Below are positions 21,014-28,457 of a stretch of DNA of 64,000 nucleotides, piece after piece; within the stretch, counting starts at the first letter, position 1, and every line of letters begins with the position of its first letter. The stretch comes from an uncultured delta proteobacterium (GTDB taxonomy: Bacteria > Desulfobacterota > Zymogenia > Zymogenales > Zymogenaceae): positions 576,001 through 640,000 of the forward strand of contig CAVTLK010000001.1 of assembly GCA_963735595.1 (NCBI GenBank). The letters are read 5' to 3'. The notes under the pieces were generated by a model. That model saw only the letters and a list, made by a program, of their open reading frames with translations. It did no database searches and was not told the DNA's origin. The position numbers were made by a program, and so were the translations under genes.

Positions 21014-21968
21014 TGATACTCCTTGATGTGGTCGATAAATTCCCCGATGATCTCGTGGCTTTTCCGTCTGTATGGAACCCGAAGGTGAGGATATAGCGAA
21101 TCTCGGGGTCGTCCCTGATCTGAAAGAGGTCCATCAGGCCGCCCCCCTCCCACGAAATGCCCCCTCGACGCAGCGCCCGCTTGAGGTGCTCGAAACAGAT
21201 CGTTACCTCATGGTGGGAAAAGAGGATGATCTTCTTCGGCCAGCGGTCGGTCCGGGTGTCGCGCAGGAGCCCGGTCATCGGCTCCGGACAGCGACCAGTC
21301 CGACGAGTGTTCGATGACAAACAGTCGATCGGTCTTGCCATCGCCATCCTCGATGAATCGACCGCGCCCGTGTTGAGGTGGATGGTATCGGGGGCCTCCG
21401 CGGATCGATGTCGAGCGTTCGGATGAAGTCGCGGGCCTGTTCGAGTAGGGAATCCTGTCGTCCGATCCGTTTGGCTCGCTCGGGCCCGGATGCCGCCCGG
21501 TAGCGCCGGTGAGGCGCCTCTTCGGTATATCGACCAGCGCCGGGAAGTCGCCCATGTTTTCGTTGGATATGATCAGGTCAAACCGGTCGGACCGCCCCAA
21601 GAAGTCGAATACGTCGGCCTCGATAACTGCGGCCCGGTCTCCAAAGCCGGCGAGCGTCTGCCGCTGGCGCCCGCAGAAGACCGGGCTGATATCCACCATT
21701 GTCATCGTTATGGCGGGAAACCGGCCGAGAAGGTATCGGGCGAGATTGCCGTATCCTCCTCCCACCTCCAGGATCCGAAAACCGTCCCGTATCATCCCCC
21801 GGCCTTCCAGGAAGTCGCCGATGACGTCGCCGTAGGCCCTCCGGACCTCAAGCGCCTCCGTGTAGGGAGACGCCGGGTCTCTCAGGCTCTCGCTGATTGT
21901 CTGCTCCCAGCCGAGGCTCGCCCGATCGGACCGGTGGTAGGGCTCGTGTCGTTTTCGGAGATGGTCAT
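21003..21968 (-). pseudogene. Class I SAM-dependent methyltransferase broken by frameshifts (probably assembly error)
   Basis: ILEVGGGYG, MVDISP, FDLIISNENMGDF; ATG at 21968 overlaps the probable ltaE stop. Confidence 0.72.
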
Positions 21969-23000
21969 CGGCCCTTCTGAAACACCTCCCGAACAGGCCC
22001 CGATCGCCGTCTCGATATCGTCTGAGGACACCTCGAGATTGGCGACACACCTGACCTTCGTCGGGCCGAAGGGAAACATCATCACCCCGCGTTTGCCCAT
22101 CTCGATGACGACATCGACCGGAGTCATCCGCGCGGGATCGACTTCAAATATAACGATATTGGTATCCACCTCTTCAGGATTTACGATAACGTCGGGAAGC
22201 CTGGAAAGCGCCTCCGCAAGCTTCCTGGCATTGGCGTGATCCTCGGCCAAGCGGCCGATGTGGTGGTCTATCGCATACAGGGCGGCGGCGGCGGCAATAC
22301 CAACCTGACGCTGCCCTCCGCCCACCATCTTCCGGTAGCGGTGAACCCGCTCGATAACGGCCCCGTCCCCGGCGATCATCGAGCCCATCGGGGCCCCCAG
22401 CCCCTTTGAGAAACAGATCGTAACGGTATCGAAGTGCTGCGTATATTGCGCGGCGGCGATCCCCGAGGCGACCGCGGCGTTGAGGAGCCGGGCCCCGTCC
22501 ATGTGCATGGATATCCCCCGCTCGGCGCAGAGCTCCCTGATACGCGCAATCTCGTCTATCGGGATGATGGCCCCCCCGGCGCGGTTATGGGTGTTCTCGA
22601 TGACGACGACCGAACTCCTCGGCTGGTGTACGTCGGGCGGCCGGATCGCCGCCTCCACCTGCTGGCGCGTGATGAGCCCCCGCCTGCCCTCGATGGGCCT
22701 GAGCTGCACGCCGGAAAAGACCGCCGACCCGGCGGCCTCGTAGATAAAGACGTGGCTTTCCGCCTCGAGGATAACCTCCTCCCCCGGCTGGGTAAGCGCC
22801 TTGATGGAAAGGAGGTTTCCCATCGTGCCGGAGGCGACCCAGAGGGCCCGCTCCTTGCCGAGGAGCGCGGCCACGCGTTCCTGAAGCCGGTTGACCGTTG
22901 GGTCTTCGTAGAATACGTCGTCCCCGACCTCTGCCTCGAAGATGGCCCGGCGCATCGGTTCGGTGGGTTTGGTAATGGTATCGCTTCTTAGATCGATCAT
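21965..23000 (-). CDS. ltaE: Low-specificity L-threonine aldolase (C-terminal indel; ORF track runs to 21882)
   Basis: IDLRSDT, VGDDV..EDPT, SGTMGN, ENTHN, HMDGAR, FSKGLGAP. Confidence 0.92.
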
Positions 23001-23026
23001 TGAGCGGCCTTTCATGGTATGGTGAG

Positions 23027-24247
23027 TTATGCTCTACTCCCGAGAGCCCGATCGAGCTCCCGCAGGAATGACTCGCTGTCGGTGACAATGCCGAGGGCCT
23101 GAAACGAGCCGCGGTCCGAGAGCTTCGTGGCGGCCGCAGGGTTTATGTCAACGGCTACCGTCCTGACGTACGCCGGCAGCAGGTTCCCGGTGGCCACCGA
23201 GTGGAGGGTAGAGGCCACCATGATCACCAGGCCGACGCCCCGCGACAGCCTCCTCATCTCGGCCTGCGCCTCCTGGGTGTCGGTGATCACCTCCGGCAGC
23301 GGCCCGTCGTCCCTGATGGAGCCCGCCAGCACGAAGGGGATGTCTTTCATGACCAAGCTATACATGACACCCGAAGTAAGGACTCCCTGCCGGACCGCGT
23401 TCCGTATCCCCCCGAGCCGGCGGATCGTATTGATGGCCCTCAGGTGATGTTCGTGTCCGCCGGCCGCCGGCATTCCCCGATCGAGATAGAACCCCAGGGA
23501 CGTGCCGAACAGGGCATACTCGATATCGTGGACGGCCAACGCGTTGCCGGCAAACAGGACGTCAACATACCCGGTCTCGATAATCCGGGAAAGATAGACG
23601 CCCGCCCCCGTGTGAATGACGGCGGGTCCGGCCACCACGAGGATCTTTTTTTTCGCCTCCTTGGCGGCCCTCATCTCGGCGGCTATCTTCTTAATCAGCT
23701 CGCCCTTCGGTTTCTCCGACGAGACCCCCGATCCCATGAACTCGAAGATCTCCCGTTCCCGTGACCGTTCGAGCGGGACGACCCTGATGCCGTCGTGCCC
23801 CACGACAAATGCGTCTCCCTTTTTCACCTCCCCGATAGGCACTGTCTCGGCATTGCCCTTTTTGGGATCAATCCTTATTCCGCAATCCATTTCCGGGTTG
23901 GCCACTTCACGCCAGAGACCTCCGATAAACACGCGGGTTTCCAGGTTTGTCGTCGAATAGAAACCTTCCGGAAAAACGCCGTCCATAGACGCATTCTCCC
24001 ATTTTACCTCGCGGTCATGGGCGACCAGCGCCCCCATGCCCTGGACCGTTTCCAGGATATCAATAAGGGAAGCGTCGGTATCGGCGAAGACCCGTATCCG
24101 GGCGTAGCTCGTCTCGGTCTTCTGCTTTCCCATTCGGAACTCTTCGACATCGAAGTTCCCTCCCCGTTCCATGATCTCGGTAAGCACGCGGGGAAGGATG
24201 AGAGAGTCGATGATGTGTCCCGATAGCTCGATCAATTCCTCGGGCAT
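23027..24247 (-). CDS. TIGR00300 family protein (LOR/SDH-region; AgrE-type ornithine cyclodeaminase-like)
   Basis: GHIIDS, FYSTTN, EMDC, FEFMGSGVSSEKP, GNALAVHDIE, AGSIRDDGPLP, KLSDRGS. Confidence 0.9.
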   Translation of the reverse strand: MPEELIELSGHIIDSLILPRVLTEIMERGGNFDVEEFRMGKQKTETSYARIRVFADTDASLIDILETVQGMGALVAHDREVKWENASMDGVFPEGFYSTTNLETRVFIGGLWREVANPEMDCGIRIDPKKGNAETVPIGEVKKGDAFVVGHDGIRVVPLERSREREIFEFMGSGVSSEKPKGELIKKIAAEMRAAKEAKKKILVVAGPAVIHTGAGVYLSRIIETGYVDVLFAGNALAVHDIEYALFGTSLGFYLDRGMPAAGGHEHHLRAINTIRRLGGIRNAVRQGVLTSGVMYSLVMKDIPFVLAGSIRDDGPLPEVITDTQEAQAEMRRLSRGVGLVIMVASTLHSVATGNLLPAYVRTVAVDINPAAATKLSDRGSFQALGIVTDSESFLRELDRALGSRA

Positions 24248-26660: not shown

Positions 26661-27584
26661 ATGAAAGCAAAGACGTTTACGATCAAGGGCAAGGGCGGGG
26701 CGAAGGTCTTCGTCTACTCCTGGCTTCCGGATTCAAAGCCGTTGGCCGCCGTCCAGATAGCTCACGGCATGGCCGAACACGCGGCCCGCTACGAGAGGTT
26801 TGCGGAGGCTCTGACGAAGTCGGGATTCGCCGTTTACGCCAACGATCAGCGTGGACACGGTAAGACCGCAGGCCCGCTGGAAAAGGTCGGCTGGGTCGCC
26901 GAAAACGACGGCTGGGACCTCATCGTTGACGATCTCCACCAACTTTCCGATACCATCCGCAAGGAACATCCCGGAGTCCCTCTCTTCCTCTTCGGGCACA
27001 GCATGGGCTCGTTTCTGTCCCGCAACTACATCTCCCGCTGGGGCGGCGACCTCCAAGGGGTCGTCCTGTCCGGTACGGGCGGAAACCCCGGCCTGCTGGG
27101 GAAGGTCGGAGCTCTCGTAGCGGGGTTAGAAAAGAAAATCAAGGGCGGTAAGGCCAAGAGCCCGCTCTTGACGTCGCTTTCGTTCGGCGCGTTCAATAAA
27201 CCATTCAAGCCCAACCGTACGGAATTCGACTGGCTCTCCCGTGATAACGCCGAGGTGGACAAATACGTCGCCGACCCCTATTGCGGCGGTGTCTTTTCTA
27301 CCGGTTTCTGGGTCGATTTCCTCAAGGGGCTGGCGGTCCTCTATCGGTCTGACTACTTCCCCAAAGTCCCCAAAAGCCTTCCCGTATACCTCTTTTCGGG
27401 GGAGAAGGACCCGGTGGGAAACAACACCAAGGGCGTGAAAGAGGTATACGACTCGTATAAGAAAGCGGGATTTACCGACGTGAGCATGAAGATCTATCCC
27501 AACGGACGCCATGAGATGCTCAACGAGACCAACCGCGCCGAGGTCTTTAAGGACGTAATCGATTGGCTCAAGAAACATATGTAA
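26661..27584 (+). CDS. Alpha/beta hydrolase (lysophospholipase-like)
   Basis: HGMAEH, DQRGHG, GHSMG, GEKDPV, RHEMLNE. Confidence 0.93.
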   Translation: MKAKTFTIKGKGGAKVFVYSWLPDSKPLAAVQIAHGMAEHAARYERFAEALTKSGFAVYANDQRGHGKTAGPLEKVGWVAENDGWDLIVDDLHQLSDTIRKEHPGVPLFLFGHSMGSFLSRNYISRWGGDLQGVVLSGTGGNPGLLGKVGALVAGLEKKIKGGKAKSPLLTSLSFGAFNKPFKPNRTEFDWLSRDNAEVDKYVADPYCGGVFSTGFWVDFLKGLAVLYRSDYFPKVPKSLPVYLFSGEKDPVGNNTKGVKEVYDSYKKAGFTDVSMKIYPNGRHEMLNETNRAEVFKDVIDWLKKHM

Positions 27585-27680
27585 TAGGCGATTGATCGCG
27601 AGGCGTGTCGCGCCGCGGCTGCCGGGGCACCGTTCATAGAAATGCACATGACCAGACTCCCGATATAAGAGGAGTTAACA

Positions 27681-27896
27681 ATGACCGACAAGATCATTAT
27701 TTACGGCAAGGGCGGCTGACCCTACACCGATAAGGCCAGGGCGGCCTACGGCGATCGCGCCACCTATTACGACGTTGACCGGGACTCGGAGCGGCTGGAC
27801 GAGATGCTCGTTTATTCAAAGGGTAAACGCAGCGTCCCGGTAATCGTGGAGGGGGGAAACGTCACCGTCGGATACGGCGGCACCTGAGGGGTATGA
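27681..27896 (+). CDS. Glutaredoxin-like Uxx-star selenoprotein, 71 aa, two predicted Sec residues (U13, U69); not in ORF track
   Basis: AGAGGAG SD; MTDKIIIYGKGG-U-PYT...YYDV...KRSVPVIVEGGNVTVGYGGT-U-GV*; in-frame TGA at 27717 and 27885. Confidence 0.88.
27727..27751 (+). promoter_or_regulatory. Putative bacterial SECIS element 1
   Basis: AGGCC-AGGGC-GGCCT hairpin (plus outer CCG/CGG), loop 18 nt after UGA 27717, G second in loop. Confidence 0.65.
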
Positions 27897-27897
27897 C

Positions 27898-27916
27898 GGC
27901 GCGCCGTGAGCGCGCC
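27898..27916 (+). promoter_or_regulatory. Putative bacterial SECIS element 2 (in the 3' UTR)
   Basis: GGCGCGC-CGTGA-GCGCGCC hairpin, loop 17 nt after UGA 27885, G second in loop, no U-tract. Confidence 0.68.
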
Positions 27917-28094
27917 TAATAAGGTACTGACAAATTAACCGTTCTATCGGCCGAGGGCGCCGGTTTCCCTCGATCTACTCGGTATAACCCGATCGTCCGG
28001 TCCCGTTAATCGGAATCCCCTGCCCGGGTATTGGCGGAGGTAAATGCCGCGGGGGACTGGGCACCACCGATACCGCGGGCCTTCAGCGCCCGCA

Positions 28095-28457
28095 TCAGTT
28101 CGCCTCAAACGCGTTCCGGATCACCCGGATGCGGGGCAGCATCCCGGACAGGTCTACGGTTACCACGTCAAATCGGCAGGCCGTGTCGTCTCCTCCGCCC
28201 CGTTGTGTCAAATACATGAGCGCCGTTCGCGCGATCTTCTGCCGTTTCTTCTCGTCAACGGCCTCCTCGGGCGGGCCGTAGTCTTTCGATCGTTTCGTCT
28301 TGACCTCAACGAATACCAGATCGTCTCCGTGTCCGGCCACGATATCGATCTCCCCGTACCGGGTGCGGTAGTTTGTCTCGATAATCCGATACCCGGAAAG
28401 GATAAGCCTCCATCGGGCAATCCGCTCCCCGAGCCTTCCCTCAGTATCACGCTTCAT
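28095..28457 (-). CDS. yraN: YraN (UPF0102) family protein
   Basis: GRLGE, NYRTRYGEIDIV, LVFVEVK, RFDVV, NAF. Confidence 0.95.
   Translation of the reverse strand: MKRDTEGRLGERIARWRLILSGYRIIETNYRTRYGEIDIVAGHGDDLVFVEVKTKRSKDYGPPEEAVDEKKRQKIARTALMYLTQRGGGDDTACRFDVVTVDLSGMLPRIRVIRNAFEAN

Follow-up and report, generated by a model that had tools for sequence, protein, structure and literature searches.

The locus examined here raises two connected questions: whether a short reading frame interrupted by two TGA codons is a gene in which both are decoded as selenocysteine (Sec) and, if so, what a small protein with two Sec residues would do. It lies in the 64,000-nucleotide stretch of DNA that was analyzed (the window). 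With translation table 11, no in-frame ORF exceeds 27 aa, and ORFs overlapping the gene in other frames are only 22–67 aa long. Reading TGA as Sec instead gives 71 residues carrying the motifs U-P-Y-T, S-V-P-V-I, and G-G-T-U-G-V. The gene is flanked by an alpha/beta hydrolase gene (26661–27584, same strand) and a convergent yraN; no promoter or terminator was found on scanning 27450–28150. Contigs from RNA runs match short parts of the gene only, at <90% identity; they thus come from relatives and are uninformative about expression of the gene discussed here. The features are as follows.

27668..27674, plus strand: Shine-Dalgarno-like site AGAGGAG in the sequence, 6 nt 5′ of the ATG at 27681
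27681..27896, plus strand: UXX-star family 1 gene, 71 codons, from ATG 27681 to the stop (profile match)
27717..27719, plus strand: TGA codon 13, putative Sec in the nucleophile position of UxxT (84 homologous loci: TGA in 70, Cys in 12, other in 2)
27733..27747, plus strand: SECIS-like hairpin 1, in-frame, loop AGGGC, 18 nt past UGA codon 13 (folding, homolog hairpin test, Arg20 codon choice)
27831..27839, plus strand: cis-Pro loop S51-V52-P53, with which the tail is predicted to form a beta-bridge (all 68 aligned sequences have P53; AlphaFold models with and without the tail)
27885..27887, plus strand: TGA codon 69, putative Sec, third from the C terminus, U-x-x-stop (TGA in 84/84 loci; Cys in ~11/150 database representatives)
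27894..27896, plus strand: true stop, codon 72, TGA here (TGA, TAA, or TAG among homologs; no hairpin at SECIS distance in 37/37 at −4 kcal/mol)
27898..27916, plus strand: SECIS-like hairpin 2, in the 3′ UTR, loop CGTGA, 17 nt past codon 69 (folding, homolog hairpin test, covariation)

The family to which the protein belongs is already named. The readthrough protein matches the NCBIfam model NF041114 (UXX-star selenoprotein family 1) over positions 1–70 of 70 with 108.5 bits (cut-off 72) and the parent model NF041212 with 79.3 bits (cut-off 66), in keeping with the likeness to Uxx-star proteins seen in an earlier, sequence-only reading of this DNA. Scores for UXX-star families 2 and 3 and the HUGP fusion (NF041211, NF047338, and NF045501) are below cut-off (46.3/100, 48.7/97, and 52/325, respectively), as are those for the classical glutathione-dependent glutaredoxin model TIGR02181 (31.5 vs 90 bits) and for TIGR02196. 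Table 1 of a 2026 review (PMC13188914) lists NF041114 as "Distant Grx-like protein 1" with UxxT and two Sec residues (WP_258313609.1), and the entry for the same family in PMC9312934 also gives UxxT. Both features are present here as U13-P-Y-T and TGA codon 69, with Sec read from the codons, and the Sec third from the end that the family name implies is found in U-G-V-stop. The main text of PMC2398784, which PMC13188914 cites for the family, contains no match for "distant Grx". In its full-length match, its UxxT motif, its second Sec in U-x-x-stop, and its length (~70 aa), the protein agrees with family 1; it shows no difference of substance, being a short-loop member that lacks three residues before strand 2. 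A member scoring over the NF041114 cut-off is present in 70 of 301 genomes sampled from the phylum, and, of the named records, the nearest come from MAGs of a delta-proteobacterium (98%) and of Candidatus Zymogenaceae (78%). Since the two-Sec family is already catalogued (PMC13188914, Table 1), the gene call is an annotation fix, repairing a gap, and not a discovery. The literature searched contained no experimental or structural study of the UXX-star family.

Codon conservation among homologs bears directly on how the TGAs are read. Homologous loci were scored by profile; 15 duplicates were dropped together with loci of <60 bits (ordinary Grx/NrdH, one frameshifted copy, and one truncated copy), and five fusion loci, four of them parsed, were set apart. 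The final set comprises 84 loci including this one, from TGA-readthrough searches that covered Sec-using lineages of one phylum plus 10 further loci. Codon 13 is TGA in 70 of these, TGT/TGC in 12, TAT in one, and GGA in one, and codon 69 is TGA in all 84 and never TAA or TAG, these counts coming from kin and being neither independent nor probabilities. The stop that follows the three-residue tails of 69 loci is TGA in 37, TAA in 20, and TAG in 12. The pattern is retained in 47 representatives with <70% identity, with TGA at codon 69 in 47/47, TGA at codon 13 in 35, and TGA, TAA, and TAG stops in 16, 14, and 7. That codon 69 is always TGA, whereas codon 72 is TGA, TAA, or TAG, suggests that the former acts as a sense codon and the latter as a stop. 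Both TGAs are present in 8/9 same-family genomes.

The tail itself is conserved, with T/S-U in 78, U-G in 54, and a final V/I (residue 71) in 81 of the 84 loci. The second Cys of CxxC is absent in 74/84, and a +3 Cys is kept together with the tail Sec in 10/84. Cys forms exist for both sites. For the tail, the pattern finds Cys in 15 of the best 150 database representatives; three wrong-code readthroughs and one mismatch were set aside, and ~11 were judged genuine, so that a Sec/Cys pair exists for the second site as well. Ten of these ~11 carry CxxT/S as their N-terminal motif. Another 12/150 have Trp at the tail position, which fits the use of a wrong genetic code, and 78/150 stop ≤5 residues past the G-F/Y motif. 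Readthrough of the third TGA (codon 72) was considered and rejected, as the extensions are unconserved and the codon is TAA or TAG in 32/69 homologs; combined with the lack of a hairpin at SECIS distance, this agrees with the earlier assignment of 27894 as the stop. The homologs include some unusual forms. Two loci (L113:1989-2204, minus strand; L125:1986-2198, plus strand) have lost the position-13 Cys/Sec (Tyr and Gly, respectively) with the tail TGA kept, and L125 retains the first hairpin. Ten longer homologs mostly look like mis-called starts or readthroughs; two database proteins (P0025 and P0027) have a hydrophobic, Cys-rich N-terminal extension ahead of the domain. Nine loci (L077, L089, L092, L095, L098, L041, L103, L108, and L039) share an unannotated, putative long ORF that abuts the start codon.

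Bacterial Sec insertion also calls for a hairpin downstream of each UGA. Hairpin 1 has the stem 27733–27737/27743–27747, and hairpin 2, with the stem 27898–27904/27910–27916, has its loop 8 nt past the last TGA and lies wholly in the 3′ UTR. Section 5 of PMC13188914 describes the bacterial SECIS as a 3–9 nt loop on a 4–16 bp stem, with G in the first two loop positions, 16–37 nt spacing, and MFE ≤ −7.5; both hairpins were called consistent with this consensus, with −13.6 for hairpin 2 and, for hairpin 1, −7.4 for the 5-bp stem alone and −12.1 with the lower stem. Folded as a single sequence, however, neither is more stable than shuffles (z +1.05 to −1.45, none beyond chance in 6/6 folds), and an Rfam search gave no matches at E up to 10. 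Hence, the single sequence is no proof, and the support is comparative. Requiring a stem of ≥4 bp, G at loop position 1–2, a spacing of 16–20 nt, and ≤ −6 kcal/mol, a hairpin was found after codon 69 in 63/84 loci, after terminal TGA stops in 0/37, and after 27/890 TGA stops of the genome. At this threshold, only 15/70 U13 sites pass; at −4 kcal/mol, 40/70 do, compared with 3/14 sites with a non-U codon 13 and 90/1000 Cys codons of the genome.

Hairpin 2 shows compensatory changes in 8/8 pairs and a covariation of 0.582 (0.258 when shuffled, 0.12–0.23 when slid) in 27/84 sequences picked for a shared stem register, a selection that favors structure. Hairpin 1 overlaps conserved protein sequence, and synonymous codon choice was therefore tested for it. 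The loop-forming Arg20 codon is AGG, CGT, or CGG (N-G-G/T) in 66/66 Arg-bearing Sec13 forms, while the same codon type accounts for 135/248 other Arg codons of the same genes and 7/11 in the non-Sec forms; the Ala19 codon is GCC/GCT in 70/70 Sec13 forms. The Arg20 bias matches the G[G/U] loop of the bacterial SECIS consensus as given in PMC13188914. Comparison of homologs thus supports both putative hairpins, hairpin 2 by covariation and hairpin 1, with weaker support, by synonymous-codon constraint. These data, together with the enrichment among homologs, bear out the two SECIS-like hairpins of the sequence-only reading, including the spacings of 17–18 nt and the 3′ UTR position of the second. 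In the established scheme of bacterial Sec decoding, SelB bound at each hairpin would deliver Sec-tRNA; termination would occur at the last TGA, which is just 8 nt away from the loop. A terminal Sec with its SECIS hairpin past the stop is also found in SaoC, a Cys-Sec C-terminal selenoprotein described in a preprint by Haft and Gwadz (10.1101/2022.07.06.499078); SaoC is a secreted protein encoded in a conserved operon and is unrelated to the protein discussed here.

The genome carries selB, selD (with its own in-frame TGA), and tRNA-SeC. Two genes are broken in the assembly (G000:C4:329754-331101 and C3:24665-25476), probably by indels: selA, which is split between two frames, and an additional selD-like gene, which is in two parts. 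All four components of selABCD are accordingly present, as expected for a bacterial selenoprotein. The selA frameshift is likely an assembly indel, because other genes of the assembly are frameshifted too and selA is whole in 4/5 relatives (fragmented in one). Could the TGAs then be artefacts, that is, sequencing errors or nonsense mutations, or does the protein simply end at codon 69? The indel errors in the assembly, which affect selA and a HUGP fusion gene, and the insignificance of the single hairpins would speak in favor of this. However, the gene is also spanned by an independent contig (run X1, record 1), which has 13 differences, none at the three TGAs; both TGAs are conserved across genera, residue 71 remains V/I in 81/84, and an artefact is contradicted by the TAA/TAG codons found at position 72 and never at 69, the hairpin test, the synonymous constraint, and the covariation. 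We regard it as extremely improbable. None of the outcomes named beforehand as fatal (no selABCD, homologs without Cys or Sec, base-call errors) was encountered. As judged from comparative sequence data, it is nearly certain that this is a real gene of UXX-star family 1, with both TGAs very likely read as Sec.

What would such a protein do? An AlphaFold model based on the 68-sequence alignment, with Sec modeled as Cys, has a pLDDT of 89 (90 for residues 61–70) and no helix past strand 4 (none after residue 63). Its top structural matches are BC3987, cGrx1, a hybrid-Prx5, and NrdH (Z 8.6–9.0, rmsd 2.0–2.5, 63–65 residues). The NrdH/YruB-like glutaredoxins Bacillus cereus BC3987 (3zij; Z 9.0, rmsd 2.5), cGrx1 (7c10; 8.9, 2.1), and Escherichia coli NrdH (1h75; 8.6, 2.0) share the fold over residues 2–67 and can be aligned at both the cis-Pro loop and the G-F/Y that follows strand 4. 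These three proteins continue with a C-terminal helix; in the model, this helix is replaced by the Sec-bearing tail. Helix-type tails are observed among the database representatives. With respect to classical glutaredoxins (TIGR02181), the protein has UxxT and not CxxC/S, and no helix is predicted after the GG kink. Among solved structures, E. coli Grx3 and Clostridium oremlandii cGrx1 are the best relatives by profile; Foldseek found nothing at E up to 0.001, and its weaker rows are glutaredoxins. The sections of PMC7642778 that deal with cGrx1 present it as a natively Sec-containing protein, with a U/C-P-x-C motif in contrast to UxxT here.

The tail had been pictured as flexible, but residues 61–70 are modeled as docked. 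A beta-bridge is assigned to residues 51–52, just before the invariant Pro53, and to 69–70; deleting residues 67–71 from the model removed the 51–52 bridge and left the rest unchanged. Judging from the deletion model, in which the bridge is lost, we infer the cis-Pro loop to be the partner of U69-G70, which would likely place the tail within the substrate groove, next to U13. AlphaFold may favor the pairing of two Cys. According to PMC2665069, thioredoxin-fold proteins and their partners associate transiently by an antiparallel beta interaction at the cis-Pro loop, and the distance between the cisPro-1 residue and the nucleophilic Cys is usually no more than 4 Å. This docking geometry, together with the cis-Pro bridge, predicts U69 at the place of the substrate cysteine, next to U13. 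The models thereby lend indirect support to the intramolecular U13–U69 relay that the sequence-only reading put forward as a possibility.

The model suggests a self-resolving thiol/selenol oxidoreductase with its C-terminal tail folded into the substrate groove, a reading to which we give about an even chance. In an NrdH/glutaredoxin fold whose last helix has become a G-G-T-U-G-V tail, U69-G70 is predicted to pair with the cis-Pro loop. U13 would attack a target disulfide or oxidized thiol, and U69 would resolve the mixed bond to generate a U13–U69 diselenide, thereby replacing the second Cys of CxxC or glutathione. Diselenides are hard to reduce, and the weakest step of this scheme is the last, in which a thioredoxin-reductase-type flavoprotein would re-reduce the diselenide. 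Two gene products of the genome are candidate reductants, a TrxR over cut-off (G000:C1:273243-274142) and a Grx-TrxR-like fusion (C1:779951-781114); the search for a ferredoxin:disulfide reductase gave nothing. Directly upstream of the fusion is a gene for a stand-alone Sec glutaredoxin (U-P-Y-C), the two together occupying G000:C1:779951-781491 on the minus strand (L019/L131/L133). Searches of the 93%-complete genome gave no match to gshA (PF04262, PF04107) or gshB (TIGR01380). Glutathione binds glutaredoxins in the same manner as partners bind thioredoxin-fold proteins at the cis-Pro loop. It is conceivable, though we consider it somewhat doubtful, that UXX-star proteins are glutaredoxins carrying their own cofactor, with the T/S-Sec-Gly tail acting as a tethered seleno-glutathione mimic in the glutathione groove and forming an intramolecular diselenide. 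This tethered cofactor is the only part of the analysis that could be new. If it is correct, anaerobes without glutathione could run monothiol-glutaredoxin chemistry. That the tail Sec is predicted to dock at the cis-Pro loop offers a cheap and specific experiment on a 71-residue protein, one that bears on how monothiol glutaredoxins are resolved in glutathione-free anaerobes and on whether catalytic cycling is possible for a natural two-Sec diselenide.

A relay that starts from U13 has the pattern of conservation against it: all 84 loci have U69, whereas 14 of them have another residue in place of U13 (Cys in 12, Tyr in one, and Gly in one). With U69 as the invariant residue, the relay could run in reverse, with Sec69 of the tail as the working nucleophile, or as a carrier swinging out to the target, and U13/C13 serving only to recharge it, as an analogy to the C-terminal Sec arm of animal thioredoxin reductases would suggest. 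The invariant U69 and the 10/84 loci that retain both the tail and an intact +3 Cys appear to fit a tail that is the business end at least as well, and the four parsed fusion domains, which also keep both, and the linker before the tail Sec that is longer by 11–13 residues in 8/84 loci point the same way. The docking of the tail at pLDDT 90 and the short G-Y-G-G-T linker, however, would leave it little reach, and the loci come from Sec-using lineages of one phylum plus 10 others, with Cys-tail forms existing elsewhere. On balance, we consider the reverse direction unlikely. It is very unlikely that the tail works in trans, on U13 of another copy in a swapped dimer or on a partner protein, since in the model a monomer accommodates its own tail with high confidence; yet monothiol cGrx1, a close structural match, is described in PMC7642778 as forming intermolecular disulfides and domain-swapped oligomers without a resolving Cys.

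Alternatively, the two selenols might serve to bind a soft metal or metalloid (As(III), Hg, or Cu), making the protein a chaperone or sensor and not an oxidoreductase. The text on the family in PMC13188914 suggests that UXX-star Sec may be a metal ligand or interact with unknown substrates, a paralog in the same genome is fused to a HUGP domain, and 12/84 loci, including all eight long-tail forms, are near genes that cluster with ACR3, an ArsP-type permease, ArsR, or an MTH895/ArsE thioredoxin, labels that come from annotated cluster representatives only. At the locus itself and in eight same-family orthologs, in contrast, the flanks examined hold no ars or mer gene, the neighbors being a hydrolase or DUF523 gene upstream and yraN downstream. 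Moreover, a passage of PMC2665069 reports that the cis-Pro keeps the thiolates in the active site of human thioredoxin from binding metal, and the cis-Pro is invariant here. A metal site is accordingly rather improbable, less so than the tail in trans, and the self-resolving oxidoreductase is the reading that we prefer.

The neighborhood names no substrate: no conserved neighbor that would do so was found among the 84 loci, and a conserved operon was rejected, with the largest neighbor cluster covering 9/84 loci (flanks 1.5–3 kb). The HUGP/GUXX-star fusion selenoprotein mentioned above carries the paralog as its C-terminal Uxx-star domain (G000:C2:755967-756173, minus strand; L018/L130; CPYC, tail G-U-A-V); it is apparently frameshifted in the assembly and is present in four further genomes (G001–G004). 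The long-tail subgroup (8/84: L099, L059, L118, L116, L058, L122, L123, and L057) has 11–13 extra residues before the tail Sec, mostly U/C-x-x-C, and tails of 4–8 residues, and all its members are near ACR3, ArsP-type, ArsR, or ArsE-like genes. From these sequences, the subgroup may be an arsenic-linked branch without a model of its own. Four loci with a five-residue tail (L117, L119, L120, and L121) are ~1 kb or less downstream of selB; between the two is a TIGR04076 or CMD/AhpD-like gene. Elsewhere in the window, the minus strand encodes a nickel-pincer-dependent ornithine cyclodeaminase (23027–24247; TIGR00300, over cut-off) and, next after it, a threonine-aldolase-type PLP enzyme (21882–23015).
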